A stretch of DNA of 64,000 bases from a virus. The translations under genes were made by a program, and so were the position numbers. Every line of letters begins with the position of its first letter. Position 1 is the stretch's first letter. Location: IMG/VR virus record IMGVR_UViG_3300045988_169405. One strand, given 5' to 3'. Positions 2,456 to 62,667 of this stretch are shown piece after piece. The notes under the pieces were generated by a model. The model was not told the origin of the DNA. It did no database searches and saw only the letters and a list, made by a program, of their open reading frames with translations.

Positions 2456-2464
2456 AGCTTATCG

Positions 2465-2700: not shown

Positions 2701-2704
2701 TTTA

Positions 2705-2940: not shown

Positions 2941-3037
2941 TTTCCCTGTCGTCCTTACACATATAACTATAACGTACCTGCGTGGGGTATGCAAGTCAAA
3001 AACTAACTATTTTCGTATGGGCTTCACCACACCCCTT

Positions 3038-3388: not shown

Positions 3389-3478
3389 TGGTGGGTTCCT
3401 TTCAGTGTGTAGTGGTTTGGGTTACCCCCCCCTATGGGTGGTTTGTGTACCCATAGGGGGAGGGGCTGGTCTTTGGGG

Positions 3479-3838: not shown

Positions 3839-3902
3839 AGGTGGTGAATCCTATAGGGGTTCCTATAGGGGGTTTCAGGGTTTCCCCCTTTGCTTATGTA
3901 AC

Positions 3903-3960
3903 TATTATGCCACACTCTAGCGGGGTACGCAAGTCGAAACAATGTGAACCTGGTCACATT
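3903..3960 (-). promoter_or_regulatory. conserved promoter module (ATGTGAACCTGGTCACAT + TTGCGT-N17-CATAAT)
   Basis: copy 2. Confidence 0.6.
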
Positions 3961-9129: not shown

Positions 9130-9393
9130 CTAGTAGGTATCTACGGTTTCGGTAATCTTGGTGTGGTTATTGGCGGTGTTCATCTCGAACCTAAATTCCT
9201 TAATGGTTGATTTCAAGCCGTCTTCAATGGTTACGGTAGCTTCACCGATAATCGGGTTCTTTAGCTTATCGTCTTCGTTTACATAGGTGAAAACGTCACC
9301 ACAGATTAGGAAGCCCTTAATGTTGTATTCTTCGATAGCGGCTTCCTTGACAGATTCTTCGATTACCTGGTCAATGGCATTAGAGATAGTCAT
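9130..9393 (-). CDS. hypothetical protein (87 aa)
   Basis: ORF; promoter module 9463-9518. Confidence 0.55.
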   Translation of the reverse strand: MTISNAIDQVIEESVKEAAIEEYNIKGFLICGDVFTYVNEDDKLKNPIIGEATVTIEDGLKSTIKEFRFEMNTANNHTKITETVDTY

Positions 9394-9462
9394 GGGGGTA
9401 TTCCTTTTCTGTGGTGAGTAGGTATTTCCTTGTGGCGGTATCCATAACCACCATTCATATAA

Positions 9463-9518
9463 CCATTATGACACACTCTAAACCCCTATGCAAGTTAGAA
9501 TTACGTGAAATAGGTAAC
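9463..9518 (-). promoter_or_regulatory. conserved promoter module
   Basis: copy 3. Confidence 0.55.
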
Positions 9519-9540
9519 ATAAAGAATTTAGTAAAGTAAA

Positions 9541-9575
9541 ACCCCCTAGAGGAAATACCACTAGGGGGTTCTACT
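9541..9575 (-). terminator. hairpin CCCCCTAG...CTAGGGGG
   Basis: inverted repeat after the pspA stop. Confidence 0.5.
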
Positions 9576-9590
9576 TAGTGAGTCACACTA

Positions 9591-10364
9591 CTACTTCTTG
9601 TTGTTTGCCTTCAGCTTTGCAAGCTCATCATCCAGGGCGGAATCAACAGCCAGAGAGTCCAGCTCATCGAAGCCGTCCTTTACCGGGTCAGCCATAATCT
9701 CCTGACGACCCTGAAGACGTGCCTCCTCACGGGCGATACGCTCTTCCCACTCATTCATAGGCGAGCTCAGGTTAGTACCATTGACGTTGATACTCTCAGT
9801 AGCGTCAAGGATACGACCCATAGCCTCATTCGTCTTATGACGTGCCAGAAGCTCATCACGCTGGTGGTGAGCCGCCGCCAGCTTCTCACGTGCATCATTC
9901 AGCTGACCCTTCAGAGAATCAACACGCGGGGTAGCAACCTTAATCTGCTCCTCAAGCTTCTCAGCAGTCTTCTCAGCGTTAGTACGGTTCTTCAGGGCGA
10001 TACGTGCCAGACCGTCAAACTTATCAGCCTGAGCCTCAGCCTTGGTACGTGCCGGGTCACCAACCTCAAGCTTCTCAGCCTGAGCACGGAACTCATCAGC
10101 CTTATCAGAAGCCGCCTGAGCCTTAACCTGCCACTCCTGAACCTTGCCCTGTTCCTTCTTATGGTCAGACTCCATGATGCGCAGGTTGCCGATAACCTCA
10201 GCAACATTACCCTCCGCTACACGAATCTCTTCCTTGTAGTCACGGATAAGCTGGTTCAGCATCTCCTGCGGGTCTTCCGCCTTATCAATTGCGGTGTTAA
10301 TCTTTGCGCGAATGAGGTTGTTGAAACGTGCAAAAATGCTGTTCTTGTTCTGGTTCTTACCCAT
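9591..10364 (-). CDS. pspA: PspA/IM30 (phage shock protein A / Vipp1 / LiaH) family coiled-coil protein
   Basis: the N-terminus MGKNQNKNSIFARFNNLIRAKINTAIDKAEDPQEMLNQLIRDYKEEI matches the PspA N-terminal helix (MGIFSRF..INALLEKAEDPQK); ~255 aa coiled coil; start chosen at the ATG preceded by GAAAGG. Confidence 0.75.
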   Translation of the reverse strand: MGKNQNKNSIFARFNNLIRAKINTAIDKAEDPQEMLNQLIRDYKEEIRVAEGNVAEVIGNLRIMESDHKKEQGKVQEWQVKAQAASDKADEFRAQAEKLEVGDPARTKAEAQADKFDGLARIALKNRTNAEKTAEKLEEQIKVATPRVDSLKGQLNDAREKLAAAHHQRDELLARHKTNEAMGRILDATESINVNGTNLSSPMNEWEERIAREEARLQGRQEIMADPVKDGFDELDSLAVDSALDDELAKLKANNKK

Positions 10365-10625
10365 TGTGGGTTTACCTAACCTTTCGTTGGTTAATGTTGT
10401 GGAACATGATTCACGGTCGCCCATCCTGTAGGGCTTCCTGTCTTTCGTGTGACCTTTTAGGGGTCATACTCAGAATATCAGGTTCCGGGGTTAAAATCTA
10501 GTGTATTACTGTATCGTCACCGACTGTTCACCTGTTGGAGCCAACCCTGCATACAAGGGGAAGGTGCTTCTTGTCTAGGGTAAATACCTAGCCAAGTTGC
10601 GAAATACATTCACTATAAGTCTTCC

Positions 10626-10756
10626 TTATGCGGGGCGGGTCGGGTATCACTACCCGGCGGTGACCATCAAGCTAACCAAGCGGCTAACTGTATAGGCCTT
10701 GACAGTACCCGTAAAGGGCAATGTCCGTTTAACCTCTCCCGTCTCTCACAGGCGAG
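10626..10756. repeat. copy A of a ~130-bp duplicated structured element (hairpin CGGGTA-tcac-TACCCG, then GGTGACCATCAAGCT...CAATGTCCGTTTAACCTCTCCCGTCTCTCACAGGCGAGG)
   Basis: aligned by eye to copy B. Confidence 0.6.
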
Positions 10757-10823
10757 GTGTTGTACCGATTATATCATATTTTCTGTCCGGTAGCACCTAT
10801 TGGCGCTCTTACCTTGTTCAGGT

Positions 10824-11234
10824 TTATGCATTGGGTGCCTTGATGTATCGACCTGTGAGGCGGATGTGAAGCGCCAAGTTCAGTAGGTGCGAAACCATGA
10901 GCACGGTGTTGTCTGTAATGTTAGCACCTGCAAGAGCTTTGGATACCGCAAAGACGGAGGCGATAACACATGCCACCTCGAAGGCGATAGTGAAAGCGAA
11001 AATTATTGCCGCTGGGACGCGGTGATGCTTAAAAAGGTATGTCCGCCAAAGCTGAACAGCAAAGGTGTACCCAAAAGCGCTACCGATAGCTCTACAGGCG
11101 GTAGGGATGAAGATTGCCGAGGTTAGCACTAGAAGCCAGTGCATGACCTGTTCGGGGTGACTCCACATTTCCATATATGGGGGGTTCCTGTCTGATAGGT
11201 AAGGGGGGGGTGGTAGCTTGGGTTGTGCTACCAC
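10824..11234 (-). CDS. small membrane protein
   Basis: 3-4 hydrophobic helices. Confidence 0.5.
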   Translation of the reverse strand: MVAQPKLPPPPYLSDRNPPYMEMWSHPEQVMHWLLVLTSAIFIPTACRAIGSAFGYTFAVQLWRTYLFKHHRVPAAIIFAFTIAFEVACVIASVFAVSKALAGANITDNTVLMVSHLLNLALHIRLTGRYIKAPNA

Positions 11235-11258
11235 CCCCTAGCATGTTTAGTGAATCGT

Positions 11259-11828
11259 TTAGTTGTTTACGTCTCGAACGTTCACCTTGAACTCACCCTT
11301 TACGTTTACGCCGTCCTTGGGTGCAACGATGGTGATTTCACCGTTACGGTACTGTTCCTTAGTGCCGATAGCGTAGGCATAATCTACGTCTTCAACAATG
11401 ATACGCACCTTGGAGCGGGGTACGGTGTTGCTGTACAGTTCGCCTTCCTGGGTTCGCAGGGTGTAGTTTAGGTACACTTCGTAGCTAGTGTTCAGGGTGC
11501 CGTCCTGTGCCGAGCCACCGCCCACATCAGCGGTGAGCTTTCCAATCCTATTGCCAGATTGCGTATCAGTATCACTGTTGCGGTGGGGGTGCTCTTCACC
11601 AGTAAGGTGCTGACGGGTTGTAAGGTTAGCGTTGATGACCACAGCTTCCTTAGCCTTCTCAGTAGGTTCAGGGCTAGGGGTTGCACTGGTGGTAGCGGTT
11701 GCCGTTGCGGTAGTGGTTTCTTCTACCTTGTTTGCAGTATTGGTACTGGAACAGCCGGTGAGCGCGATAGCACCGATAAGAGCGGCGGCGGTCAGCTTGG
11801 AGAGCTTCATTGTTTGGGTTCCTTTCAA
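11259..11828 (-). CDS. lipoprotein (signal peptide + lipobox LTGC, T/A-rich linker)
   Basis: MKLSKLTAAALIGAIALTGCSS. Confidence 0.6.
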   Translation of the reverse strand: MKGTQTMKLSKLTAAALIGAIALTGCSSTNTANKVEETTTATATATTSATPSPEPTEKAKEAVVINANLTTRQHLTGEEHPHRNSDTDTQSGNRIGKLTADVGGGSAQDGTLNTSYEVYLNYTLRTQEGELYSNTVPRSKVRIIVEDVDYAYAIGTKEQYRNGEITIVAPKDGVNVKGEFKVNVRDVNN

Positions 11829-11856
11829 GGGGTAAGGGTTGTTATTGCTAACAGGT

Positions 11857-12108
11857 TTAGCGGGTCTGCATGGAAATGCAGGGGGTGTCTACGAACGCTT
11901 CCAGGGCGCGCTTAGGGTTTCCAGCGTCAGCGGTACGGTCAAGGTAGATAGGGTATTCCTTTACGCCGCGTGCATGGTATGCGAAAGTGCCAGGGCGCAA
12001 CTTCCAATCCTTATTATAGGTGATGATACCTACGCGCTCGTGGTTACCGTTCATGATTCGGTAAGTATCGTTTTGCACCTTCACCAAGTGGAGACCCTTG
12101 TATGCCAT
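11857..12108 (-). CDS. hypothetical protein (83 aa)
   Basis: ORF. Confidence 0.5.
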   Translation of the reverse strand: MAYKGLHLVKVQNDTYRIMNGNHERVGIITYNKDWKLRPGTFAYHARGVKEYPIYLDRTADAGNPKRALEAFVDTPCISMQTR

Positions 12109-12207
12109 TGTAACGCTTCCTTTCCGCTCTGATTAGTGGTTAGTGGTATTTGCCCCGCTAGGCGCTTAGGTGAGCACCTAGTGGGGGTTTAGGGGGCACT
12201 ATAGGGC

Positions 12208-12462
12208 TTAGTAACCCTCTTCGTCTTCATCGTATTCATAAGAACCCATGCCGTGATTTACGCAATAGGCACCCAGGGTGGCGAGCAGGTGGTCATAATT
12301 GCCACTCATGGCTTCATTGATTACCATGTCAATGTCAGCCTTATCCCAGCCGTCACGTCGAGCCTGCTGTGCGAAGCCGCCCATAAGGTTGAAGGCGTTA
12401 CCGTCCTGACCAATCATCTTGTAATTGACCTCGCAAACGGGGGTGAAATTCTCAAGAGCCAT
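12208..12462 (-). CDS. hypothetical acidic protein (84 aa)
   Basis: ORF; promoter module 12555-12612. Confidence 0.55.
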   Translation of the reverse strand: MALENFTPVCEVNYKMIGQDGNAFNLMGGFAQQARRDGWDKADIDMVINEAMSGNYDHLLATLGAYCVNHGMGSYEYDEDEEGY

Positions 12463-12554
12463 TTGGTATACTTCCTCTCTAGAAGTAGTAGTAGATATAA
12501 GGTCTAGCCATGTTTAGCTAGTACCTTTGAGGTTTCCCTCTTGCTTATGTAACC

Positions 12555-12612
12555 ATTATGGCACACTCTAAACCCCTATGCAAGCCGAAATCAAGTGAAA
12601 TAGCTCACATAG
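12555..12612 (-). promoter_or_regulatory. conserved promoter module (TTGCAT-N17-CATAAT; AGTGAAATAGCTCACA)
   Basis: copy 4. Confidence 0.6.
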
Positions 12613-12690
12613 GGGTTTATAGGGGTAAAGTGCCTTATAAATAGGGCTTCTTCTTACTCTACTTCTTCAAGAAAGCACCAAAGAACACGC

Positions 12691-13761
12691 CTATGAGATA
12701 GGTGTCAGTAGAGTATCTACAGCACGGACAATATTGCGCCCATAGTAACTATGCCGCATGTCTTCACTAATAGGAACATTGCCATGCGCTACCGTGGGCT
12801 CAATCTTTTCACCCAAATAGACAGGTGGGGCAATTCGGATAGCACACACCGTAGAAGTAGGTGCACCCGTGACATACGGTTGCTTGTTCTTACCGGCGGA
12901 AAGTGCATACACTTCATTATTAGGGGTAGTGACATAAGCGAAAGATGCTTCACTGAAACTCAAACAAAGCTTGTCCAACAAATAGGTGGATACTGCCGCA
13001 CTGCAATCTGCGTAACCATGAGGATAGCCCATATCATTATCAGTATCCGACCCAGCAGATGCAATAATAGATTCAAGAATGGTTCGATAATTCAAGTCAT
13101 GTGAGACAATCACCTTATACCCAACCATTGCCCCATACTGATTAACAAGCGCATAAGCACCACAATCACTATAGGGCGGCATCTTAGCCACGAGCCTGCC
13201 GGTTTCCACCTCTGAATCCGCGTTAGTCATAAAGTACCCCTTCGGGTCTTCGCCTTCACCATGAGGAAGTACAGCCATAGCCACATCACGCACAGTTTCC
13301 GAAAGAGCATGACCTACAGTAGTTTCACTAAGATGCCGACCACCTGAGCGTGCATAACTATACCCATGCTCACCACTCCTTAGATGCTTCGGCAAGTCAC
13401 TCAATCGGGTAGTGGTATTGAAAATACTGTATTCCTCAGCGGTATAAACGGCAACAGACTTGGCGGTTACGATACTGTAATACTTACCTTGCGGGTCTGC
13501 AACTGCTGTAACAGTGAGAGTGAATACATTGCCTTCATTGTCGATAATGTACCGCTTAGAAGTATTAGTTGGTGCTTCACTACCCGCCGGGTCATCAACG
13601 CTAACCCAGGTAAGAGGTTGCGGTGGCTTATACCCGGCGGGCGGTTCAGCCGTGATAGTCGCGATAGTTGTAGTCATCTCAGAGGTCAAGAGATTATCCA
13701 ACAGAAGCTTGAGTACTTCCTCAATAGTGACCTTGTTTTCAATATGTACAGATGCGTACAT
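12691..13761 (-). CDS. hypothetical protein (356 aa)
   Basis: ORF. Confidence 0.6.
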   Translation of the reverse strand: MYASVHIENKVTIEEVLKLLLDNLLTSEMTTTIATITAEPPAGYKPPQPLTWVSVDDPAGSEAPTNTSKRYIIDNEGNVFTLTVTAVADPQGKYYSIVTAKSVAVYTAEEYSIFNTTTRLSDLPKHLRSGEHGYSYARSGGRHLSETTVGHALSETVRDVAMAVLPHGEGEDPKGYFMTNADSEVETGRLVAKMPPYSDCGAYALVNQYGAMVGYKVIVSHDLNYRTILESIIASAGSDTDNDMGYPHGYADCSAAVSTYLLDKLCLSFSEASFAYVTTPNNEVYALSAGKNKQPYVTGAPTSTVCAIRIAPPVYLGEKIEPTVAHGNVPISEDMRHSYYGRNIVRAVDTLLTPIS

Positions 13762-13859
13762 GGCATCTCCAAAAGGGGTAGGGGTCTATAGGTTGTAAAA
13801 TAGAGTGCATGAGGGGCTACTAATTCACCCGTCATGCACTCTATCCTATCATATCCTAT

Positions 13860-14990
13860 TTACTTACGGTGCTTACCGCGAGTCAGGAAAGCATTAGAAA
13901 CAATCTTGAAGTGGGCACGGTTAGCAATTTCACGGCGGGGCTTACCGTCCTTGAAGTACCAGACGATGCCTTCGGCGGTCTGACCGGGCGCTACCTGAGA
14001 CTCTACAGAGTCAGCCTGCTCAAGGGCGGCAAAGCCGTTACCTACCCATTCAATGTCGAGTACGGGTACCCAGAGGTTCGCGTCCTTGAATAGTGCTTCG
14101 ACAGTATCGTTAGATGCGTGGAAGGCGCGGAAATCGGGCTGGTCGCCGGTAGCAAACTTGAAGGTACCCCTAATCTTGTTGCAGAAAAGTTCACCCTGTA
14201 CCCATTCACCCGGCTTGAGCTGGTCAAAAACATGGGCGTAGCGGCGGTAACCGTCAAGGTACTGCTTCCAATTCTTGCTATCCATTGCGTCTACCTTAAT
14301 GGAGCGGTCACGGTTAGCGATACGAATTTCACCGGTATCAGCATCACGCCAAACAGTCATAGAGGTGCCGTCAATCTTCTCAGTAGCATACACGTCATCT
14401 GCGGTGATGCTATCCAGGAAGTCGGTAGGGATATTCTGGACGCGCTCAGCGTCAGTCTTGGTGATGAAGTTAGGGAACGCTTCTAGACCGTAGTCACCAC
14501 CGGCAAGAATCTTCTCCTCGACATGCTTAGTGATGATGCCGTCGAAGTAGGTGTCCACCTCTTCTTGAGTAGCATCTTCACTCAAGCCTTCAAACTCAGA
14601 GACGGGCAAGATAAGACCCTGCGACAGGGTTTCACGCAGGTACATGGTGCGCAGTACTACGCCTTCAATATAGTGTCCATTGACAACGCGGGTCGCCTTC
14701 TTGCCACGGATAGGCTCAAACGCCGGGTGCTTGGTGTTGAGGATTGAGTCAATCTCAAAGTAAACACCCTTATCGCCTTCGGTCATGGTCTTGGGCGCTA
14801 CAACCCACCACAGGGTGCCTTCGGGTCGGACGGCGTGAATCTTATCTGCCGGGTTGTTACATTCCTTTACTTCTTCAATGGTGGTAATGTGTGCGAGGTG
14901 TCGGATACCGTCTACGGCGGTAGAAGTCATGATGTTTATGTTCCTTATCTTTCGGATATGCTGGGTTCCCCGTATGGTGAATAATACCAT
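13860..14990 (-). CDS. ATP-dependent RNA ligase-like covalent nucleotidyltransferase (Rnl family; N-terminal domain + NTase)
   Basis: motif I TEKIDGTS (KxDG), motif IV AEGIVWYFKDGK (EGhVhK), motif V HFKIVS; likely start at MTSTAVDG (14930). Confidence 0.5.
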   Translation of the reverse strand: MVLFTIRGTQHIRKIRNINIMTSTAVDGIRHLAHITTIEEVKECNNPADKIHAVRPEGTLWWVVAPKTMTEGDKGVYFEIDSILNTKHPAFEPIRGKKATRVVNGHYIEGVVLRTMYLRETLSQGLILPVSEFEGLSEDATQEEVDTYFDGIITKHVEEKILAGGDYGLEAFPNFITKTDAERVQNIPTDFLDSITADDVYATEKIDGTSMTVWRDADTGEIRIANRDRSIKVDAMDSKNWKQYLDGYRRYAHVFDQLKPGEWVQGELFCNKIRGTFKFATGDQPDFRAFHASNDTVEALFKDANLWVPVLDIEWVGNGFAALEQADSVESQVAPGQTAEGIVWYFKDGKPRREIANRAHFKIVSNAFLTRGKHRK

Positions 14991-15015
14991 ACGGGGAGAG
15001 GGTAAGGGCTAGGGG

Positions 15016-15342
15016 TTAGTTCATTTCAATCCTATTGTCTTTGAGGGTCAGAATACCGTCTTCAAAGTCTACCTCGCCAATATCATCAACGTTTACGCGA
15101 ATAATCTTCAGGAGAGCAAAGAAGTCGGGGTCAAAAGTCGTAAGGTCGATAGTAAATCGGGATTCCTCTACAGCCGCCACAATGTGCGCACCGAGAGTAC
15201 CATCTTCTTCCACGTGGGTATCAATGGCGATTGCCTCGGGGACAAAGCCATCAAACATGAGGTCGGAAAGCTCATCGGGGGTTTCAAAAGAGAACGAGAT
15301 ACCTTCCCATGCGATAGCGGGTACCTGAAGTTCGATAGTCAT
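15016..15342 (-). CDS. hypothetical acidic protein (108 aa)
   Basis: ORF; promoter module 15425-15480. Confidence 0.55.
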   Translation of the reverse strand: MTIELQVPAIAWEGISFSFETPDELSDLMFDGFVPEAIAIDTHVEEDGTLGAHIVAAVEESRFTIDLTTFDPDFFALLKIIRVNVDDIGEVDFEDGILTLKDNRIEMN

Positions 15343-15424
15343 TGGGTGCTTCCTTTCGGGGAGTCTACTGTAGCGGGCTTAGGCGCCTTGTGGAAGTTGT
15401 CTATCACTTCCTCGCTACATTTCT

Positions 15425-15480
15425 ATTATGGCACACCCTAACCGGGTATGCAACTCGAAATCATGTGAAATAGGTCACAC
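15425..15480 (-). promoter_or_regulatory. conserved promoter module (TGTGACCTATTTCACA; TTGCAT-N17-CATAAT)
   Basis: copy 5. Confidence 0.6.
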
Positions 15481-15499
15481 GCATAATAAAGGTACAGGA

Positions 15500-15535
15500 A
15501 GGCCCCTAGCGCACACAATCACACTAGGGGCTTCT
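15500..15535 (-). terminator. hairpin GCCCCTAG...CTAGGGGC
   Basis: inverted repeat. Confidence 0.45.
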
Positions 15536-15549
15536 TAGTTACATATGGT

Positions 15550-16143
15550 CTACCAGTTAGAAGCAAACGCAGGCAACTCACGGGCAACACTCTCAAAATC
15601 CGTACCAACAAAAGAGCCAGCACCATTCATCTTAGTATCGCCTTCCACCTTCTTATTCATAAGGCGAACAGAACCATACACCCACGCCGTATCACACACA
15701 GTACAGGAACCATCTAGACGGGATTCACCGAACACCTGCGCCTTATCGTAAACCCATGACGTGCCACCAACCCAGGTGCGCCCGTGTACCTTAGCTTCAC
15801 CATAGATGAGAGGCGAACCGTACACGAAAGCGTTACCGTACACCTGTGCCTGCTGTGCTACCTGTGCATCATCTTTAACAACAGCTGAACTATACACGAT
15901 AGCGTCATCATGAACCCAAGCGCCGTCGCCCTGCGACAGGTTGCCGATTCCTTGAATCCAGCCACCTAGAGCACCCTTCGGGGCGATAAGCTTACCGTCG
16001 CTAGTGTACACGTCTTCCAATGCGCGGATACGGTGGACAGTCACCCCGTTATCGAGTTGCTTGCTAATATCTGTTACTTCATACTTCTTACTTGCTTTAC
16101 TAGTCATAATAATTACTGTAATCTTTCTGTAAAGTAGTACCAA
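15550..16143 (-). CDS. beta-helix repeat protein (VYGxAxV repeats); paralog of 39293-40345 and of the C-terminus of 26988-28313
   Basis: repeats VYGNAFVYGSPLIYGEAKVHGRTWVGG; shares the HRIRAL/YRIKAL motif with 39293. Confidence 0.5.
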   Translation of the reverse strand: MVLLYRKITVIIMTSKASKKYEVTDISKQLDNGVTVHRIRALEDVYTSDGKLIAPKGALGGWIQGIGNLSQGDGAWVHDDAIVYSSAVVKDDAQVAQQAQVYGNAFVYGSPLIYGEAKVHGRTWVGGTSWVYDKAQVFGESRLDGSCTVCDTAWVYGSVRLMNKKVEGDTKMNGAGSFVGTDFESVARELPAFASNW

Positions 16144-16232
16144 TTTTAGATATTCCCCTGGGGTTTTATCTTACATTGGTACTACTTTTACCATCTTTCA
16201 TCTTTAGTGTTACGCCATAGAGCCTAAAATGA

Positions 16233-16760
16233 CTACTTGAGCATAACAACACTTTGGAACACCCGCTCCACCCCATGTGGACAGTGAGGGCGATAGAAGC
16301 TTGCCCCTAGTATCCTACTTGTAAAACTGGGCTTGAGTGTACTGCGGAGTTCGCCTGCAATGAGAGTTGCATCATAGTTGTAGACATAGTATGACCGCTG
16401 TTCCGTGTCTTCTACTACGGTGTAGCCACTGGATGCATGTATTGTGACGTGCACAACCGCGATAATATCTCCGTAGGCTTTCAAGCCTTCACGAACACGC
16501 CAGTTTCCGCTCCAGAGTGTCTTGAGTGTGACTGTCGGCTCTGAGGCCTGAGAGTTCCATGTGATGCGTGAAACTTCGGCACCCTTTAGCCGCACCTCTT
16601 GACGGGTGTGTGGCGAAAGCTTGTAGCGACCATTTTTGATAGCCTGTACTGCCCGTTGCCAAAAGTAAGCGTGCTGTTGCTCGGACATGCTGTGAATGTC
16701 GCCGCCGCGTGGAGAGAAATTTGATTCCATTGTCATGGAGCCTTTCATAGATAGAACCAC
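16233..16760 (-). CDS. hypothetical protein (175 aa)
   Basis: ORF. Confidence 0.55.
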   Translation of the reverse strand: MVLSMKGSMTMESNFSPRGGDIHSMSEQQHAYFWQRAVQAIKNGRYKLSPHTRQEVRLKGAEVSRITWNSQASEPTVTLKTLWSGNWRVREGLKAYGDIIAVVHVTIHASSGYTVVEDTEQRSYYVYNYDATLIAGELRSTLKPSFTSRILGASFYRPHCPHGVERVFQSVVMLK

Positions 16761-16790
16761 CCCGCATAGGCGGGTGGAATGGTTGCAATA

Positions 16791-18074
16791 TTAGCCGCCA
16801 GAGGTGCCACCGCCAGACTTGGAACCGCCACCAAAGCCACCCTTAGAGCCACCGCTAGAGGAACCACCAGACTTGGAGCCACCACCGGACGAAGAGCCAG
16901 AACCGCTATTGCTACCGCCACTCTTAGAGCCAGAGTTAGAGTTGCTACCGTTATTGGAGGAGCCACTGTTGCTACCGGACTTGCTATCACTCTTGGAGTT
17001 ATTAGAAGAGCCGTTACTGTTGCCGTTGGAGCCGCTACCGTTATTGTTCTTGTTAGCGTTATTGTTGTCGTTGTTCGGCTTGTTGTTATTGGTATCCTTA
17101 CCAGCGTTGTTATTATTACCGGTATTGCTGTTGTTGCCTGACTTGTTAGCGGCTACAGCACCTGCCGCCGCTCCAGCCGCCGCACCTGCACCTGCCGCCG
17201 CCGCCGCGTTACCACCATTATTGTTACTGGTGCCACTATTACCGCTAGAAGAGCTGTTGCTACCGTTAGAGGTACCGGAATTAGACTTAGTGCCGTTACT
17301 AGAGTTCGGCTTATAGTTGTAACGTTCAGTGGTGACTACCTTACCGTCCTTCACGCCCGCCTTAGCCTTAGCCGCACGGTAAGAATCAGCGAAAGAACCA
17401 CCGCTAGAGGGTACACCCTGATAGACGGTTCCCTTATTGGGCATACTAGTGCTACCGCCCTGCAAGGAAGAACCTACAGCGGGTACGTTACCGTTGTAGT
17501 GGCTGTTACTATAACCGTAGCCACCGCCGCCGTTATTGTTCTGACCCATCATGTATCCAATGTAGTACCAGATAAACATGCTGGTGCCACTATTACTACC
17601 GTGGGCATCACCACCGCCGCCGTTATTAATATTGATGTTAGTACCACCATTATTATTAGACGGGCTACTAGTAGGCGAAGCCGAAGGGGTAGTACTAGAA
17701 GACACGGACGGGGAAGCGCTCGCAGTTGCAGACTCAGACACGGAAGGCGACGGGGAAGGCGAAGCTGATTCGGTAGCTTCACAGCTAGTATCCTCAGCGC
17801 GGGTACCATCTTCAACCTTCTGGCATACACGGACATACTCAATGCCCTGCGTACTGAACGGAGTCTCACTAGGGGTAGGCTGAGTATTAGTCTCAGGGAC
17901 ACTACAGCCCGAGAGGATTAGAGCACCAGCACCAGCGGTAGCAATAGCCCTTAGAAGCCGGTTAGGGCGCGGGTTGTCGTCAATAGTGGGCGCGTCTTCA
18001 TTCCAGGCGTGCAGGGCGCTCTGTGCGACTTCCTGAATATCTGGAACGTTATTGTGAGATGAAGAGGTATTCAT
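16791..18074 (-). CDS. lipoprotein with a very long Ser/Gly/Asn-rich low-complexity region
   Basis: lipobox LSGC; ~300 aa of S/G/N repeats; imperfect DNA repeats 16800-17300. Confidence 0.55.
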   Translation of the reverse strand: MNTSSSHNNVPDIQEVAQSALHAWNEDAPTIDDNPRPNRLLRAIATAGAGALILSGCSVPETNTQPTPSETPFSTQGIEYVRVCQKVEDGTRAEDTSCEATESASPSPSPSVSESATASASPSVSSSTTPSASPTSSPSNNNGGTNININNGGGGDAHGSNSGTSMFIWYYIGYMMGQNNNGGGGYGYSNSHYNGNVPAVGSSLQGGSTSMPNKGTVYQGVPSSGGSFADSYRAAKAKAGVKDGKVVTTERYNYKPNSSNGTKSNSGTSNGSNSSSSGNSGTSNNNGGNAAAAAGAGAAAGAAAGAVAANKSGNNSNTGNNNNAGKDTNNNKPNNDNNNANKNNNGSGSNGNSNGSSNNSKSDSKSGSNSGSSNNGSNSNSGSKSGGSNSGSGSSSGGGSKSGGSSSGGSKGGFGGGSKSGGGTSGG

Positions 18075-18326
18075 GTATACATGGCTCCTTTAGATAAAAG
18101 ATAGGGGTGTACTAGTCACATAGTGCGACAATCTATGGAAATTATAACACACCCCCTTATCTACCGCTAATCACAGTAAATAAGGGGGTGCACCACATCT
18201 TATCCGCTACTCAGTATATCACTACTACAGGCGAAGTGCAAGATATTGAGTCCAGGTATTAGACACGAGGGCAAATAAAATGCTTTCAATACGCCACTTA
18301 CAGCAATACACCGAAAGCATGATAGG

Positions 18327-18914
18327 TTACTCGTTCACTATGGGTAGCATTGTCTCGGCACTACCAGCGGGAATATGAATAATGATGCGACTCTTCAAGA
18401 ATTGGGCATTAGATTCTTCCATATTGCCACGTACAGGGAATAGGTCGAATGGGTCATAGTAACTATTTAGAACACGTAGTTCCTTACCCGCTTCCAGGTC
18501 AGCACCCTTCACCTGGTACTCGACAATGTGTTCTATACGCGCTTCTTTATCGGTAGCTGGCAGGTCATCCTTGAGAGCTACCTCACACTCTGGCTTATTC
18601 CTTATGCGTGCAGTCTGAGTGACTAGGCTACCGTCTTTTTTACGTTCTATCCACCTGTATCGGGTGTAGGTAGCGTTAGTACGCAGATTGCTGATGGGAT
18701 AGGAGGTGTTGCCGCCTTCCAGCATGTTACCGTCAGCGTTGAGGTAATAGGTCACAGTGTGAGTGTAGAGTGCATTATCCATCTCTTCTTCACATGCCTT
18801 CTTACTCAGTTTACGCATTTCCATGATGGAGCATACTAGCGCTACTGTGCATATAAGCAAAATTATTATTAAGAACGCGCGGAAGACCGCATCGTCGAAG
18901 ATGTATTTATCCAT
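18327..18914 (-). CDS. membrane-anchored hypothetical protein
   Basis: N-terminal TM helix. Confidence 0.55.
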   Translation of the reverse strand: MDKYIFDDAVFRAFLIIILLICTVALVCSIMEMRKLSKKACEEEMDNALYTHTVTYYLNADGNMLEGGNTSYPISNLRTNATYTRYRWIERKKDGSLVTQTARIRNKPECEVALKDDLPATDKEARIEHIVEYQVKGADLEAGKELRVLNSYYDPFDLFPVRGNMEESNAQFLKSRIIIHIPAGSAETMLPIVNE

Positions 18915-18987
18915 AGGTAATCCTTACTTACTAGAGACGCAACCGGGTTACTCAATCACTAGGGGGTGCACCCTTTAGGTCTAGCGT

Positions 18988-19803
18988 TTAGTCACTGTAG
19001 TTATCTGATTCCGAGGGGGTAGTTGGCAACGAGTTTAGATACCTAAACGTTTCAACAACAGCTTCTAGCTCTTTGAGGTTATCCGCTGTAATAGGTGCCT
19101 TACCTGCATGTAGACCTGCACCCATATACACATAGAAGTCGCCGCGCCTAATCTTATAACAACTCACAGTGAACCTTGTTCCAGACGCACCCGTGAAACT
19201 AATGAGTGTATCATCCCAACCCCAATAGCCGTCTTCATCATCAATGAAAACATCATGGAAAAGACCGGGGTTAGTAGCTTCGAGTGCTTCAGTGAACTCT
19301 GTCTTCTCGAAACGGTTAGCCGGGTCACAGTGAACCCAAACCGAAACAGTATCTTCCGCTCCCTTATCACCATCATGGTACAGGTTATAGATTAGGTGGT
19401 CGCCACGGCTCCAACGTGATTTAAGGTAAGCATCAATATCTTCCCGCGTGATAGGGATACCCGACAGCTTAGCCGACTCCTCATGAAGGCGCGCCTTTTC
19501 CTGCTTCTCAGCCTCAATCTTTGCCCGTTCCTCAGCGGACATAGGCGGCAACTTCGTGTACATATCCTGTACCCTAGTTTTACCCCAGCCCATAGGCTTA
19601 CCCTCATGCAAGAGTTCCCAGAGGCTACGACCACCCCCCTGTTTCGTGGGGTGCTGTGTATTGGGCTCACGCAAATAAGTTACCTTAACCTCGACTATCC
19701 CATCATGCTCCCCTAGAACCTCAATATCCACCTTATCATTATTGGGGTGCGGCTCACTATTTGACTCTTCACCCTTTTTCTTCCAAAACATAAGCTTCCT
19801 CAA
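18988..19803 (-). CDS. hypothetical protein, tandem paralog of 19804-20352
   Basis: shared FHDV...SCYKI(R/H)RG C-terminal domain. Confidence 0.6.
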   Translation of the reverse strand: MRKLMFWKKKGEESNSEPHPNNDKVDIEVLGEHDGIVEVKVTYLREPNTQHPTKQGGGRSLWELLHEGKPMGWGKTRVQDMYTKLPPMSAEERAKIEAEKQEKARLHEESAKLSGIPITREDIDAYLKSRWSRGDHLIYNLYHDGDKGAEDTVSVWVHCDPANRFEKTEFTEALEATNPGLFHDVFIDDEDGYWGWDDTLISFTGASGTRFTVSCYKIRRGDFYVYMGAGLHAGKAPITADNLKELEAVVETFRYLNSLPTTPSESDNYSD

Positions 19804-28354: not shown

Positions 28355-28717
28355 TTAGTTGTATCGTTCCTTGTACTTTGTAACAGCCCAGGGTACTAGG
28401 TTGGAAATTAGCATCATTGCGCCCCAGCCGAAGGTGCCGGAAATGATTAGGGGGTTCCCTTCAATGACTCCATGTGCAGTGAACGCGGGTGTAACAACGA
28501 TACCCCAATAGACAGTGGCGACAGCCTGGATTGCCCCAATAATGATTGAGGTGCCGCCCTTGAATGTGGCTTCCCACACGGGACACCCTAGCCGCCACCA
28601 CACTAGAGCCACAGGCACGGCTGTGATAACCCCCGGTATCACGAAGGCTAACCATAGGGGTGCGGCACTAAAGAACCCAGTCGGGTCAGCGAACATGTTT
28701 ACAAAATCAACAAACAT
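28355..28717 (-). CDS. small membrane protein, MFVDFVNMF family
   Basis: paralog. Confidence 0.6.
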   Translation of the reverse strand: MFVDFVNMFADPTGFFSAAPLWLAFVIPGVITAVPVALVWWRLGCPVWEATFKGGTSIIIGAIQAVATVYWGIVVTPAFTAHGVIEGNPLIISGTFGWGAMMLISNLVPWAVTKYKERYN

Positions 28718-28891
28718 AGGCGGTCACCTTTTCATTCAGGATAGTATTCATTGTTTTATTGTATCAGTCCTGCGGTTTCTTTACCTAGTAGGGCTTGATT
28801 GCGTGCTGGTCATGTTTCAGGGTAAGCAAAAAGCGCCGCGAAACCCTGTAGTATTTTTGGGTTTCGCGGTGCTTCGTGCCCCTTATAGGGG

Positions 28892-29572
28892 TTATTGCTG
28901 TTCGTTGTGTAGTTCTGCCTGTCGTAGGCTTCCAGTATCCACAGGAACAGTGATACCGGACGAGGTGATGGGCGGCGGCTCTGTGGTGCGCATACGTTGC
29001 CATACGCTTAATGCTACACCTACGAGGACTAGCATGTTACCGATGATGTTGGTGTAGCTACCTACTAGGAGGTAGTAGCTGACCCAGCACGCTACATTGA
29101 GAACTGTTACGGTTTTGAGTGCTACGAAGTTTTCTAGTAGCGCCATAACGAGTCCGGTTAGCCCACCTAGTAGCGCTAGGGTGCCGGGTGACCATAAGCC
29201 CCACCCGAGGATGCCGTACTGGGTGACGGCGGCGGTACCGACTGCTACACTCATTGATGCACCACGGTAGATAGGTGATTGGACGAATGTTAGCCGGTTC
29301 TCGAATAATAGCATGATGTAGTATGCCAGGTTTACTAGGTTCATGGCTAGAACACCGGTTTGTCCTAGTAGGAATGATTGGGCGGCTGTTAGGGCACACA
29401 TTCCTAGACTGATGTTTCTGACCCAGGTGCGGTTTGCGTACCCGATAAAGAACAGTCCGGCGCTCACACCTAGACCAAGTATCTGTACAGTGATGTTTGC
29501 TGGTGCTGTCAGCATATGTTCACCTGTGTCCTTTCTGTTTGTTTGGCGGGTACGTTTTCGTGTTGTGGGCAA
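28892..29572 (-). CDS. polytopic membrane protein (likely start at MLTAP, 29515)
   Basis: 6-7 TM segments. Confidence 0.55.
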   Translation of the reverse strand: MPTTRKRTRQTNRKDTGEHMLTAPANITVQILGLGVSAGLFFIGYANRTWVRNISLGMCALTAAQSFLLGQTGVLAMNLVNLAYYIMLLFENRLTFVQSPIYRGASMSVAVGTAAVTQYGILGWGLWSPGTLALLGGLTGLVMALLENFVALKTVTVLNVACWVSYYLLVGSYTNIIGNMLVLVGVALSVWQRMRTTEPPPITSSGITVPVDTGSLRQAELHNEQQ

Positions 29573-29652
29573 AAAAGTACCCCCCCCCCGGCGAACAAAA
29601 CATTACTGTTTATTGTCCGATAAGGGAGGGGTGCTTTAGTTTGTTATTTTAG

Positions 29653-30441
29653 TTACTTGAGAGTAATCTTAGCCTTTTTGGGGTGGCGCTCATCAACCTC
29701 TACCGATTCAATAATGAAGGTGTGACCTGCAAGACCTGACGCGATAGGCTTATCTGGGGTGAGAGTAATCAGTGGTTCATCTTGGCTGTACTTACTGGGC
29801 ACACGTACAGCGATATTGTCACTAATGAAGACAATCTCTCGCTCGATGGGGTGCACTTCTGCAAGATGCTCAGCCGGGTTCTTGTCCTTGTAGTAGTAGA
29901 GCGGCGAATAGTCGTAGAGGAAGTCTTCAAATTCCCAAATGTCGCCCGTGCTGAAGTTCACGGTCACCTCAATGGGGTGTTCCGGGGTGAAAGAGGTTAC
30001 CAGGTGTCGCTTCTCTTCGGCGTACCACTTGATAGCTTCCTTAGCCTTTCGGCTCTCGTCGTGGTTTCGCGGCTCGTGGGGGCGGTTATAGCCTTTAAGT
30101 ACGACTGCTTCACCTTTCTTTGTCCAACCGTAGAGGGTGCTGTGGTCCCACCAACCCATAAGGCTGTTCTCCCACTTCTTCACGCCGTAGTCACGGTTAA
30201 GCAAGATGGTGAGTGAAGCCGCGCCGTAGGTTTCGGGGAAGTGAATATCTACGGGGTCTTCTACATAGAGGTAGCAGTCATCAAGGTAGACGGGGTCTTC
30301 ATCCTTTAGGTAGGGGTGCTTCTTGAGGTCGGCGGGTGTCATGCGACGAACCTGTCCCGTGTCGATAATGCTCTGAATCTGGTACTTCCCATAGTTCCAG
30401 GTGATGTCCCGGATGATGCGTCCTGCGTCAGTGAAACCCAT
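29653..30441 (-). CDS. hypothetical protein (262 aa)
   Basis: ORF. Confidence 0.6.
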   Translation of the reverse strand: MGFTDAGRIIRDITWNYGKYQIQSIIDTGQVRRMTPADLKKHPYLKDEDPVYLDDCYLYVEDPVDIHFPETYGAASLTILLNRDYGVKKWENSLMGWWDHSTLYGWTKKGEAVVLKGYNRPHEPRNHDESRKAKEAIKWYAEEKRHLVTSFTPEHPIEVTVNFSTGDIWEFEDFLYDYSPLYYYKDKNPAEHLAEVHPIEREIVFISDNIAVRVPSKYSQDEPLITLTPDKPIASGLAGHTFIIESVEVDERHPKKAKITLK

Positions 30442-30479
30442 GATGTATCCTTTCCTTGGAGGGGTAATTGGGGGGGGGG

Positions 30480-30947
30480 TTAGTTTATGGCTTTGGTTGC
30501 TTCTTTGAGTTTGTCGCGTCCGTAGTTGTATAGGGTGATTGAGCGGTCGAGGAAGTTTTTAGCTTCCTGGAGTCGTTTCATTTGAATGTCGTAGGTGGTT
30601 AGCTCTTCGTGTCCTTCGTAGGGGATTGCTGTGAAGTCTTCGTTGAGGGTTTGTGCTACGTCGTTTGTGAAGGCGAACCTGTGGGTGTCGATGTCGTTAG
30701 AGAGCTTAATCAGGTCAGTGTATAGTGACTGGTTGGTTTTGGCTAGGGTGCCGTCATTGATTTTCGCTTCAATGTTGATGGTGTTGAAGTTCGCATATGC
30801 CTCTGTTACGGCTTCTATACGCTTCGTGTCAAGCTCTTCTTGCTTGAGGGCGACTAGGGTACGGTCTGCTTCAAGCTGTAGCTCATATAGGGCTTCAAGC
30901 TTTACACCAATACTTGCTAGTACTTCATCCATTTCAGGGGTGTGCAT
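30480..30947 (-). CDS. hypothetical coiled-coil protein (155 aa)
   Basis: ORF; promoter module 31005-31062. Confidence 0.55.
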   Translation of the reverse strand: MHTPEMDEVLASIGVKLEALYELQLEADRTLVALKQEELDTKRIEAVTEAYANFNTINIEAKINDGTLAKTNQSLYTDLIKLSNDIDTHRFAFTNDVAQTLNEDFTAIPYEGHEELTTYDIQMKRLQEAKNFLDRSITLYNYGRDKLKEATKAIN

Positions 30948-31004
30948 TGCGTATCTTTTCCTTTCCTATAGTAACTTGGGTGTCTTACAAGAACTTCTAT
31001 AACT

Positions 31005-31062
31005 ATTATGCCACACCTTATAGGTGAGCGCAAACCTAAAACCGTGATTTATACCACACCCC
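31005..31062 (-). promoter_or_regulatory. conserved promoter module
   Basis: copy. Confidence 0.55.
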
Positions 31063-31074
31063 CATTTTGGCATG

Positions 31075-31135
31075 AAGGAAGCCCCTAACCGTAGAGCCTA
31101 TTACTCTATAGGTTAGGGGCTTATCTGTATCGGCT
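31075..31135 (-). terminator. hairpin GCCCCTAACC...GGTTAGGGGC
   Basis: inverted repeat after the flotillin stop. Confidence 0.5.
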
Positions 31136-31150
31136 CTACGCCGTTACATT

Positions 31151-32728
31151 CTAGAACTCACCATCATCTTCTGGGTCACCTAGATTCAGAGGCTCTAGAA
31201 CAGGCTCAGCTTCCTTCTTAGTATCCTTAGCGGCGTTATTGATTCCGCTACCGATAGCTCGACCGGTTACAGTTGCCTGAATCAGGTCACGAACATCAAG
31301 TCCTAGACCGGCGGTAACCTTATCCATGCTGGTCATGATGTCGCCAACCATCTGCCCGGTGTTACCTTCACCGTACATGGTAATGCTATCAACGTTATTC
31401 AGCGGCTCAGATACGGCGCGTGCAACTTCAGGTAGGACATTGACAAGCATCTCGATAACAGCGGCATCCTTCATCTTGAGCATTGCTTCCGCCTTCTTGT
31501 CTAGACCGTCTGCTTCTGCTTCAAGCTTGAGGCGTACTGCTTCTGCTTCTGCTTCACCGCGTAGGCGGATTGCGTCTGCTTCTGCTTCTGCCGTCATCTT
31601 GAGAGCTTCCGCTTCCTGCTGGCGGCGGTATGCTTCCGCTTCAGCGGTCATCTTCAGCACTTCTGCTTCCTGCTGGCGGCGGTACGCCTCAGCTTCAGAC
31701 TTCTTCATGCTCTCAAACAGTTCAGCCTGTGCGCGCTGTTCACGTGCTCGACGTTCAGTGTTCGCGGTTTCTTCAACCTCAGCAACTAGGGTCTGCTTGC
31801 GGACTTCAACTTCCTTAGCCTTGACCAGCGCTTCCTTTTCCTGTCGGACAATGTTAGCGTTAGCGCGGGCGGCTTCGGTTCGGCTTCGCTGGTTCTCGAA
31901 CTCAGTCTCGAACGCGGCTTCAGCGATTGCTCGTTCCTTCTCAGCTTCAGCTTTGAGCTGGCTCTTAGAAATTTCGAGTTCGTTCTGCCTCTTAGCGATT
32001 TCCTTATCAGCGGCGACACGTGCGTCGTTTGCGAGCTTTTCAGAGCTTGCCTGCTGTTCCTCAATCTTCTGGGTTGCGATAGCCTTAGCGGTTGCCGCTT
32101 CCTGTCGAATCTTTTCGGTATTGTCAGCACCAAGGTTGTCGATAACACCCTTATCGTCACGGACGGTCTGGATGTTGAACGCTACGATTTCTAGACCCAT
32201 TTCCTCTAGGTCGTTCGTCGCGTTTTCCTGAACCTTGTTAGCGAGCTGTTGCCTATCTTGGACGATAGCCTTCAGTTCCATTTCACCAATGATGGAGCGT
32301 AGGTGACCTTCAAGGGTTTCACGTACCGAGTCAGCGATTTCAATATCAGTCCTACCGAGGAAGTTACGGGCGGCAACCTCGAACAGTTCCTTACGGTCTA
32401 GACCGATACGTACCTTCACTTCAGCTTCAGCCTGCACGTTGATAAAGTCGTTAGTAGGGGTGCTACCGTTCGTCTTCACATCAATAGATACCATGCTTGC
32501 GGTCATGGAGTCTACACGCTCAATGAACGGGACACGCCAACCAGTCTTACCCTGTAGTACACGGATACCACGGCGACCTGAGATGACCTTCACCTCACCG
32601 GGGCTTGCCGATACGATACCTGCCATGAAGATTGCCACACCGATACCAATGATGATGAGTGCGGCTACGGCGATAATTAGTAGGTTCGCGATTTGCATTA
32701 TGTAGTTATTCTTTCTGTCATGGGACAA
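31151..32728 (-). CDS. flotillin / SPFH (band-7) domain protein: N-terminal TM, SPFH domain and a long E/A-rich coiled coil
   Basis: TM MQIANLLIIAVAALIIIGIGVAIF, then GEVKVISGRRG...; EA repeats resemble FloT/YqiK; likely start at MQIANLL (32698). Confidence 0.65.
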   Translation of the reverse strand: MSHDRKNNYIMQIANLLIIAVAALIIIGIGVAIFMAGIVSASPGEVKVISGRRGIRVLQGKTGWRVPFIERVDSMTASMVSIDVKTNGSTPTNDFINVQAEAEVKVRIGLDRKELFEVAARNFLGRTDIEIADSVRETLEGHLRSIIGEMELKAIVQDRQQLANKVQENATNDLEEMGLEIVAFNIQTVRDDKGVIDNLGADNTEKIRQEAATAKAIATQKIEEQQASSEKLANDARVAADKEIAKRQNELEISKSQLKAEAEKERAIAEAAFETEFENQRSRTEAARANANIVRQEKEALVKAKEVEVRKQTLVAEVEETANTERRAREQRAQAELFESMKKSEAEAYRRQQEAEVLKMTAEAEAYRRQQEAEALKMTAEAEADAIRLRGEAEAEAVRLKLEAEADGLDKKAEAMLKMKDAAVIEMLVNVLPEVARAVSEPLNNVDSITMYGEGNTGQMVGDIMTSMDKVTAGLGLDVRDLIQATVTGRAIGSGINNAAKDTKKEAEPVLEPLNLGDPEDDGEF

Positions 32729-32892
32729 TATAGGTTCACGGGTTGCCGCACCCTGCGGGTTCGTGTCGTGAACCGTTAGAGTGCTTGACTTGAAGGGGTT
32801 CCCGTAAACCTTGATGTTTCCCAGTGTACACGTTGCGGTGTGCGTGTATCAAATCTGTGGGCGTGTCTCATGCCCCGGCAACAAAAATAAGG

Positions 32893-32933
32893 GGCACCTA
32901 CCCGCTACTGTCAGCGAGTAGGTGCCCCTTATG
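32893..32933 (-). terminator. 12-bp stem hairpin AGGGGCACCTAC...GTAGGTGCCCCT
   Basis: inverted repeat. Confidence 0.5.
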
Positions 32934-32951: not shown

Positions 32952-33398
32952 TTAGATGAAGAAATATTCTTCTACAACATGGTTAATGATTTTACCGTTC
33001 ACACCTGCGTGCTGTTCGCGATTATCGCATACCTGCTGGTCGTAGTGAGTGAACCTATGGTACGGGCGGCTATTGTTCTTGCCTGTGGGTTTACCTTCAT
33101 GCTTAGCCCACGCCTGTGTACCTTCGTACCGCCATTCAAAGCTCTCTGCGCGGTGGGTTGGCATCATCTTCATGCACGGCTTGTAGGTGCCGTCTTCGGT
33201 ACAGAACGTATGCTGTAGTGTTTCGCCGTTAAACTCTTCTACATAGTTCTGCACCTGAATAGGGGTATCGTCATTATGCTCATTGACCCGGCACGTCTTA
33301 GGGGTAATATAGGTTACCCCGGCAATGACTCCAATGACGGCGACTAGGAAGCCGGACACTAGGAAGAAGACCTTAGCCCGCTCGATTAGATTTTCCAT
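32952..33398 (-). CDS. membrane-anchored Cys-containing protein, family member 1 of 4
   Basis: shared motifs W(R)Y and C-D-x-R-E-x-H...G-x-I-x-H-x-V with 37858, 42595, 55889. Confidence 0.55.
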   Translation of the reverse strand: MENLIERAKVFFLVSGFLVAVIGVIAGVTYITPKTCRVNEHNDDTPIQVQNYVEEFNGETLQHTFCTEDGTYKPCMKMMPTHRAESFEWRYEGTQAWAKHEGKPTGKNNSRPYHRFTHYDQQVCDNREQHAGVNGKIINHVVEEYFFI

Positions 33399-37857: not shown

Positions 37858-38331
37858 TTATGCCATGTAGAAAGTGTCGCTCACGTTATGCTTGATAACC
37901 TGCCCGTCTTTGTCCTTGAAGCGTTCACGTCCATCACAGACTGCGGTGTCGCTTTCTTGGTGGAGGTAGTAAGAGTAACCGGTGCTTGACTTTTCAGGGT
38001 CACCGCTCCAGTTCGTCCAACCTTCCTCGGGGTCTGTGTACTTGTCTGCGTATCGCCACTGGTAGCTACCGCTGTGCCATTCTGAGCCGTCGTAGGGGCA
38101 TGAGCCCATAGACCCGTCAGCGTTCAGGCACGGGCGCATTTCGTGGACGCTTTCGTAGTATCCGGGGCTGTAGTTTCGGATTTCTACACGGACTTCCTGG
38201 CTGGTTTCGTTCCTGACACATGTATTGGGCTTTTCGTTGGCACTGATAATGCCAAATACGCCTAGTCCGACCACCATTGTGGTTACCGCTTTACCGATTA
38301 TGCTACCAATGGTTTCTTCTTCGTCGCTCAT
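37858..38331 (-). CDS. Cys-containing secreted/membrane-anchored protein, family member 2
   Basis: motif CDGRERFKDKDGQVIKHNV. Confidence 0.55.
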   Translation of the reverse strand: MSDEEETIGSIIGKAVTTMVVGLGVFGIISANEKPNTCVRNETSQEVRVEIRNYSPGYYESVHEMRPCLNADGSMGSCPYDGSEWHSGSYQWRYADKYTDPEEGWTNWSGDPEKSSTGYSYYLHQESDTAVCDGRERFKDKDGQVIKHNVSDTFYMA

Positions 38332-62601: not shown

Positions 62602-62667
62602 GATTAGCACCTTTCGGTAGACAGTGGAACTAGCTTTAGGGGTTATCCCCTTGCTACATTTCTATTA

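Follow-up and report, generated by a model that had tools for sequence, protein, structure and literature searches.

In bacteria, PspA attaches to membrane under stress, seals it and maintains the proton-motive force; its name, phage shock protein, goes back to the induction of the host copy by phage stress. SPFH/flotillin proteins, for their part, scaffold and fluidize membrane domains. Bacteria couple the two: PspA of Bacillus subtilis is brought to the membrane by the SPFH protein YdjI (PMC8581546), and PspA has been found in operons with proteins combining a transmembrane segment with Band-7 and flotillin domains (PMC11237479). Among large phages, PspA-like or SPFH/flotillin genes have been annotated in passing, namely ORF54 of the Ralstonia jumbo phage RsoM2USA, whose BLAST match 'Phage shock protein A' was listed without comment (PMC8504454), the SPFH proteins of Xanthomonas phage X1 (PMC13384950), and proteins of phage csAssE-Sib and Vibrio phage KIT04 annotated as 'flotillin family protein'. 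None of these four is reported to carry both, however, and we found neither literature on the function of phage-encoded PspA or flotillin nor, in the literature and sequence collections searched, a report of the two in one phage genome. Here we describe a 64,000-nucleotide (nt) stretch of DNA (the window) that encodes a PspA/IM30 protein (9591–10364, minus strand) and a FloT-type flotillin (31151–32698, minus strand) on an element that several lines of evidence strongly suggest to be a huge phage of the human oral cavity. Both proteins are ordinary members of known families; phage-borne PspA is rare, and the pair is a co-occurrence rather than a demonstrated module.

A first-pass annotation of the window had proposed a PspA homolog with an N-terminal amphipathic helix and coiled coil at 9591–10364. 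Indeed, the 257-amino-acid (aa) product matches PspA_IM30 (PF04012) over its full length (profile positions 1–218 of 220; E 4.2e-30; 105.4 bits against a cutoff of 33.9). It aligns with solved PspA and Vipp1 chains in two blocks that cover both halves of the protein (E ~1e-13), and ~24 extra residues between the blocks (95–117) lengthen the hairpin tip. AlphaFold modeling yielded a mean predicted local distance difference test (pLDDT) score of 73, with the hairpin core above 94, and placed helices at residues 10–28, 32–98, 104–191 and 202–255, the second and third of which make up the long hairpin. When the model was searched with Foldseek, 12 of the 12 best PDB matches were Vipp1 or PspA structures of the ESCRT-III superfamily, and the protein is accordingly modeled as an ESCRT-III-type long hairpin followed by C-terminal helices. 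Alignment with bacterial PspAs revealed conservation of the N-terminal helix, the AEDP motif and the C-terminal helices. Residues 8–25 (NSIFARFNNLIRAKINTA) align with alpha0 of the bacterial proteins, have a hydrophobic moment of 0.43 and overlap the first modeled helix, which has low pLDDT; they are predicted to form the membrane-binding amphipathic alpha0. Translation from an upstream ATG at 10424 would extend the protein to 277 aa, whereas most relatives measure 255–257 aa.

In sum of domains and motifs—a full-length PF04012 match, the N-terminal helix, AEDP, the ESCRT-III-type hairpin and the C-terminal helices—the window PspA thus resembles Actinomycetota PspA, LiaH and Vipp1. It differs from bacterial PspA in being encoded on a phage-like element, in sharing only 39–48% identity with any cellular protein among 15 billion, in its longer hairpin tip and divergent allele classes, and in that no PspBCF or LiaIFSR partners were found with it. 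Scores below the NCBIfam equivalog cutoffs (66 versus 243 bits for TIGR02977, 41 versus 336 for NF007974 and 30 versus 380 for the LiaH model NF045984) indicate a family member that is equivalog of neither Escherichia coli PspA nor B. subtilis LiaH.

The second call of the first-pass annotation, a transmembrane segment, SPFH domain and EA-rich flotillin coiled coil at 31151–32728, was likewise borne out, with one adjustment. That open reading frame (ORF) begins at a TTG (32728) and would encode 525 aa; the ATG at 32698, giving 515 aa, is the likelier start because relatives are 511–515 aa long. The protein matches Band_7 (PF01145, the SPFH domain) with E 5.8e-21 and 75.8 bits (cutoff 23.6) and, C-terminal to the EA-rich coiled coil, Flot (PF15975) with 37 bits (cutoff 27). 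Its match to human flotillin-1 (E 9e-47) extends over nearly the whole length, through residue 450, and a 38-residue hydrophobic stretch (residues 7–44 of the 525-aa reading; Kyte-Doolittle peak 3.18) forms the N-terminal anchor. Anchor, SPFH domain, EA-rich coiled coil and Flot domain are shared with B. subtilis FloT and with flotillin-1 and -2. The NCBIfam FloT model NF058507 is covered from position 47 to 474 of 477 with 215.7 bits, below its equivalog cutoff (216 versus 700 bits), in line with a FloT architecture in a protein that is not a FloT ortholog; further differences from B. subtilis FloT are that the window protein is phage-encoded and that no NfeD/YuaF-type partner was detected. 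Profile, PDB and fold matches rule out a generic coiled-coil similarity, and we therefore regard the homology of the two proteins as real.

The two genes have different distributions among phages. Flotillin relatives beyond the element's own clade are very numerous at 60–64% identity, and clusters of this group include contigs reaching hundreds of kb. Among them are the phage-like contigs L001–L004 (e.g., GCA_003555725.1 QWCF01000133.1; guanine-cytosine (GC) content 0.25), in which a flotillin 64% identical to that of the window has genes for a glycyl-radical enzyme and NAMPT on either side, a Pnk-RNA ligase fusion in the vicinity and many orphan genes around it. Contigs of this type share only the flotillin with the window, which suggests that unrelated huge phages exchange flotillin genes. 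In IMG/VR, at least 67 viral contigs (up to 300 kb, GC 0.27–0.43) carry a full-length flotillin of 35–44% identity and otherwise have nothing in common with the window; this count is a lower bound, as it derives from two short peptide patterns only. Eleven GenBank phage records matched at no more than 43% identity, two of them annotated 'flotillin family protein' (csAssE-Sib and KIT04, 22–27% identical to the window protein), and the SPFH part matches the large family phrog_200. Given this spread over many unrelated viral contigs and phage records, flotillin is a recurrent cargo of large phages, which argues for a generally useful function. In the element itself, the ratio of nonsynonymous to synonymous divergence (dN/dS) of flotillin is 0.04–0.05, the lowest among the neighboring genes, indicating strong purifying selection.

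PspA, by contrast, appears to be very rare in phages and nearly absent from sequenced ones. It has no PHROG match, a tblastn search of 50,697 GenBank phage records returned no match at E 1e-5, and a relaxed threshold or a typical PspA query retrieved just two short uncultured records; megablast of the PspA and flotillin regions against GenBank phages gave no match either. Four IMG/VR contigs (94–361 kb, GC 0.51–0.53; L013–L016, i.e., UViG 3300045988_174689, _182794, _174371 and _179268) encode an actinobacterial-type PspA that is 41–43% identical to the window protein and 50–62% identical to bacterial ones. They share no gene but PspA with the window and may represent a second lineage of large actinophages with an independently acquired PspA. 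The first-pass view that neither protein is typical phage cargo thus holds for PspA but not for flotillin.

A word-index search with the window PspA returned its own clade (91–97% identical), a single divergent allele of 57% identity and bacterial proteins at no more than 40%. At least 528 cellular relatives emerged from a scan of 185,579 species genomes, the best 80 of which are all from Actinomycetota (Streptomyces, Microbacteriaceae, Micrococcaceae and Actinomycetaceae) at a uniform 39–43% identity, and HMMER found no full-length PspA closer than 42–48% outside the phage clade among 1.84 billion cluster representatives. Actinobacterial PspAs are 55–80% identical to each other, while the phage alleles share 42–45% and 34–37% with them and 25–33% with other PspAs, a pattern indicative of a long branch off the actinobacterial PspA clade. 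For both the PspA and the flotillin gene, GC content and GC at third codon positions equal the window mean, which marks PspA as an old resident; a recent acquisition from the host is ruled out by this composition and by the lack of a close donor. The syntenic position of PspA is kept in a diverged relative, and its dN/dS is 0.35–0.43.

The first-pass annotation had taken the co-occurrence of the two proteins to suggest a deliberate manipulation of host membranes. What stands of this is that both genes are present on the same near-complete clade contigs (286 kb and 310 kb), are long resident and are under selection; what does not is the idea of a module, given that they lie in separate transcription units 21 kb apart with a transfer RNA (tRNA) array in between. 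Likewise, PspA was found within 6–10 kb of flotillin at none of the other viral loci (67 flotillin and four PspA loci). The small membrane proteins said to be numerous nearby are not enriched: 16 of 76 minus-strand ORFs (21%) contain a hydrophobic segment, an ordinary share.

We favor, with moderate confidence, a reading in which a huge oral phage with a probable Actinomycetota host uses PspA and flotillin for membrane maintenance during a long infection. The phage would carry two complete, selected cellular membrane-maintenance proteins to hold the host membrane intact: its own PspA would cover stressed areas of the cytoplasmic membrane, seal them and keep up the proton-motive force, while its own flotillin would scaffold or fluidize membrane domains. 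The joint effect would be a host cell that stays energized and unlysed until the lysis program of the phage fires. Stress might arise from genome entry, from the many membrane proteins of the phage, from superinfection or from membrane-targeting defense effectors of the host. Although expressed from separate units, the two proteins may cooperate as bacterial PspA and SPFH proteins do, and since bacteria couple PspA with SPFH or flotillin proteins (PMC8581546, PMC11237479), a joint membrane role is plausible. Host, timing and the whole physiological role are what we infer here; protection from abortive-infection toxins or the organization of a replication site, both put forward in the first-pass annotation, would be purely speculative additions.

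Several observations weigh against this reading. The 21-kb separation and the separate regulatory signals mean that the arrangement of the two genes gives no sign of co-function. B. subtilis ydjFGHI and the PspA/Band-7 operons likewise combine PspA with an SPFH protein or flotillin in one genome (PMC8581546; PMC11237479), but their YdjG/H, CesT/Tir, AAA+ and YqiJ/YuaF partners were not found among the Pfam matches in the window; more broadly, Pfam matches of the 77 window ORFs included neither PspB/C/F, LiaI/F, PspM/N or YdjG/H nor the flotillin partners NfeD, YuaF or YqiJ. The ~84 kb open to inspection in all (the window plus 10 kb past each end) showed no gene for a capsid, terminase or portal protein, and no close relatives of the window were found in IMG/VR. 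Finally, PspA diverges fast. Compared with the relative L009, PspA is 57–60% and the adjacent membrane protein 67% identical, versus 83–96% for neighboring genes, and PspA has a synonymous divergence (dS) of 0.70, versus 0.27–0.30 for its neighbors. Such divergence fits an arms race or a host-specific interaction better than simple housekeeping.

These last data bring in counter-defense, which we consider an unlikely alternative. Here, PspA, perhaps together with the adjacent variable membrane protein, would specifically neutralize abortive-infection effectors of the host or proteins of competitor phages that depolarize the membrane, with flotillin having a separate general role. DNA identity to L009 drops to 74% over PspA (9379–10537) as compared to 88–91% in the flanks, and protein identity across this divergent island is 57–69% versus 83–96%; at least two PspA allele classes exist in otherwise similar genomes, and the membrane protein varies continuously (55–97% identity) within the clade. 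Moreover, the dS of PspA is discordant with that of its neighbors in both directions, as it is high in comparison with L009 and low in comparison with another relative, L011 (0.024, neighbors 0.19–0.39). This indicates that phage strains have exchanged alleles, as is typical of conflict genes. Yet the dN/dS of PspA stays below 1, PADLOC defense families were unmatched apart from SMC-like coiled-coil noise, and no target is known. The substitution pattern points to an evolution of PspA that is fast but constrained and concentrated at the hairpin tip; an alternative cause of the divergence there would be relaxed constraint. The dN/dS values obtained for the lipoprotein and membrane protein encoded upstream were inconsistent with protein identity and were discarded as alignment artifacts. 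Relative to L009, the divergent island spans 9379–11234 and includes both PspA and the adjacent membrane protein.

A bolder idea, to which we lend about as little credence as to counter-defense, casts the ESCRT-III-family PspA with its long, rapidly diversifying hairpin tip as an active weapon. Its task would be either to neutralize abortive-infection effectors of the host that depolarize the membrane or to reshape the host membrane into a structure specific to the phage, for which flotillin would be the membrane scaffold. If this were true, it would amount to a virus-encoded PspA-flotillin membrane-remodeling pair in bacteria.

Less probable again is a role in lysis timing, in which PspA would hold back the holin of the phage, or the membrane lesions that the phage makes, and so determine when lysis occurs, rather than repair incidental damage. 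PspA does end a putative unit in which a lipoprotein and a multi-pass membrane protein are encoded as well, and in the one that we examined (L013) of the four IMG/VR contigs with an independently acquired PspA, the gene adjoins a 1023-aa endolysin-like gene (GH25+LGFP+NlpC/P60). In the window, however, neither an endolysin nor a recognizable holin was found next to PspA, and the IMG/VR contigs, which are viral by database label, have just PspA in common with the element.

We further regard it as very unlikely that the window is a piece of bacterial chromosome, a megaplasmid or another extrachromosomal element in which both genes would be ordinary cellular ones. The missing virion and packaging genes in the ~84 kb and the absence of the element from IMG/VR are in its favor, and because of them, phage identity is a strong inference rather than a demonstration. 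Against it stand the accessory hallmarks of tailed huge (jumbo) phages: a tRNA array, RNA-repair and nucleotide-metabolism genes, families known only from PHROG, dense orphan ORFs and repeated promoter-terminator cassettes. Specifically, nearly all window genes lie on the minus strand, ~80% are orphans, many of them small, and most of the ~77 ORFs of at least 100 aa lack Pfam matches. The array of 17 tRNA genes between PspA and flotillin (20537–23659, minus strand) supports phage identity, as does an RNA-repair kit composed of a Ro60/TROVE-vWA protein (520–2121), an RNA ligase (13860–14990), the tRNA array and a T4-like polynucleotide kinase-phosphatase (Pnkp; 2421–3956 of the related contig L206, farther left), which suggests a defense against tRNA-cleaving nucleases of the host. 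The best matches of the Ro60/TROVE-vWA protein are Arthrobacter, Streptomyces and Gordonia phages (31–39% identity). Thymidylate synthase (ThyA) and dihydrofolate reductase (DHFR) are encoded within 10 kb past the right end of the window, while the first 10 kb past the left end hold orphans only; 14 PHROG families were matched in the window, including multi-copy families without assigned function.

The distribution of the element argues in the same direction. A 201-kb contig labeled human oral metagenome, ERZ989722 ERR589706 k127_43384, carries the exact window proteins, close relatives occur on many contigs of 257–310 kb, such as ERZ27282492 k141_22378 at 286 kb and QWCL01000005.1 at 261 kb, and contigs of the element, 200–310 kb overall, recur over many samples. 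The window has a GC content of 0.50, as compared to 0.55–0.74 in Actinomycetota loci with the nearest PspA relatives (0.71 in the closest oral Actinomyces context).

That the two genes are neutral passengers, i.e., captured host genes without a role in infection, is the least credible of the alternatives: cellular genes do accumulate in large phages, yet this explanation is disfavored by selection (flotillin above all), by fully ameliorated composition, by retention of both genes across a clade whose PspA has no cellular donor closer than 42–48%, and by the recurrence of flotillin in many unrelated large viral contigs.

In this element, then, the phage would supply its own copy of the phage shock protein. 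If membrane maintenance is indeed the function, large phages would have borrowed ESCRT-III-family proteins and flotillins to manage the energetic integrity of the host membrane. Experimental work has yet to address such a layer of host takeover, or of counter-defense to membrane-targeting abortive infection. Human oral metagenomes commonly contain the element, and the recurrence of flotillins in large viral contigs extends the question to a considerable number of uncultured phages. As they diverge, the PspA alleles provide a natural experiment on which PspA surfaces matter, although practical value will stay modest as long as there is no host or cultured phage to work with.

As to gene context, an intergenic element of ~60 nt is repeated 22 times in the window (e.g., at 400–428, 12555–12583, 31005–31033 and 62664–62692). 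On the minus strand it reads TGTGA-N6-TCACA, ~10 nt, TTGCAT, a 17-nt spacer and TGnCATAAT, a pattern with 18 exact matches versus 0 expected. Its first part is a CRP/GlxR-like palindrome, and a GGGG...CCCC hairpin usually precedes the element; in some copies, a 10-nt inverted repeat flanks the palindrome and the -35 motif. The repeat probably represents the main promoter class of the phage, including an operator at which a regulator of the CRP family or one of the phage would act. The copy nearest upstream of PspA (12555–12583, minus strand) would open a putative unit of two small ORFs, a lipoprotein, a multi-pass membrane protein, a 459-nt gap and PspA. Another copy just downstream of PspA (9465–9493, minus strand) begins the next unit, so that PspA appears to be the last gene of its own.

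Within the PspA unit, the predicted lipoprotein (11259–11828, minus strand) has a signal peptide with an LTGC lipobox and weak N-terminal matches to mycobacterial lipoprotein models. The multi-pass membrane protein directly upstream of PspA (10824–11234, minus strand), recognized by its hydrophobic segments, is clade-specific and fast-diverging, with homologs of 116–136 aa in this element only (55–97% identity). As a candidate for a bacterial PspA partner it was ruled out, there being no bacterial homolog. The 459-nt non-coding gap (10365–10823, minus strand) contains an extended -10-like sequence, TGATATAAT, at 10768–10776, a candidate promoter that the consensus scan did not call.

Flotillin looks to be regulated differently. 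A strong intrinsic-terminator-like hairpin (20-bp stem and T run; 32887–32932, minus strand) precedes the gene, and a sigma-70-like site, TTGATA-18-TACACT, distinct from the repeated element and identified by consensus match only, lies between this terminator and the flotillin start (32823–32852, minus strand). As a copy of the repeated element is located just downstream (31005–31033, minus strand), flotillin appears monocistronic. The genes flanking it have no family match. One member of a paralog family of 126–157-aa proteins (32952–33398, 37858–38331, 42595–43041 and 55889–56269), at least three of them with a hydrophobic segment at the N terminus, sits directly upstream of flotillin.

Scanning metagenome contigs with the promoter pattern yielded mostly chance matches and ~5 kb of new sequence of the same element, containing Pnkp and a multi-pass membrane protein. 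The latter (L206 1508–2242, ~17 kb left of the window) is a very hydrophobic protein of 244 aa that adjoins Pnkp; a PDB sequence search with it gave no match. In the tRNA array, the tRNA-like gene at 22913–22990 (minus strand) has an 8-nt anticodon loop, an ARAGORN anticodon 'taac' and an Rfam tRNA score of 38 bits; possible identities are a tRNA of the frameshift-suppressor type and a degenerate copy.

The sole long gene on the plus strand (6444–8021) encodes an IS605-type TnpB with a Cas12f1-like TNB domain. It behaves as an insertion polymorphism: L011 lacks it at this site, L009 has it at a different one, and in L206 a frameshifted copy lies elsewhere. The C-terminal half of a 427-aa protein (16791–18074, minus strand) is very long and of low complexity, with an abundance of Ser, Asn and Gly, and relatives conserve the N-terminal part only. 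Lastly, beta-solenoid-like paralogs are encoded at 15550–16143, 25503–26516, 26988–28313 and 39293–40345, with weak matches to the LbH and YdcK-solenoid families of Pfam, and a further paralog just outside the window matches phrog_5070/7964.

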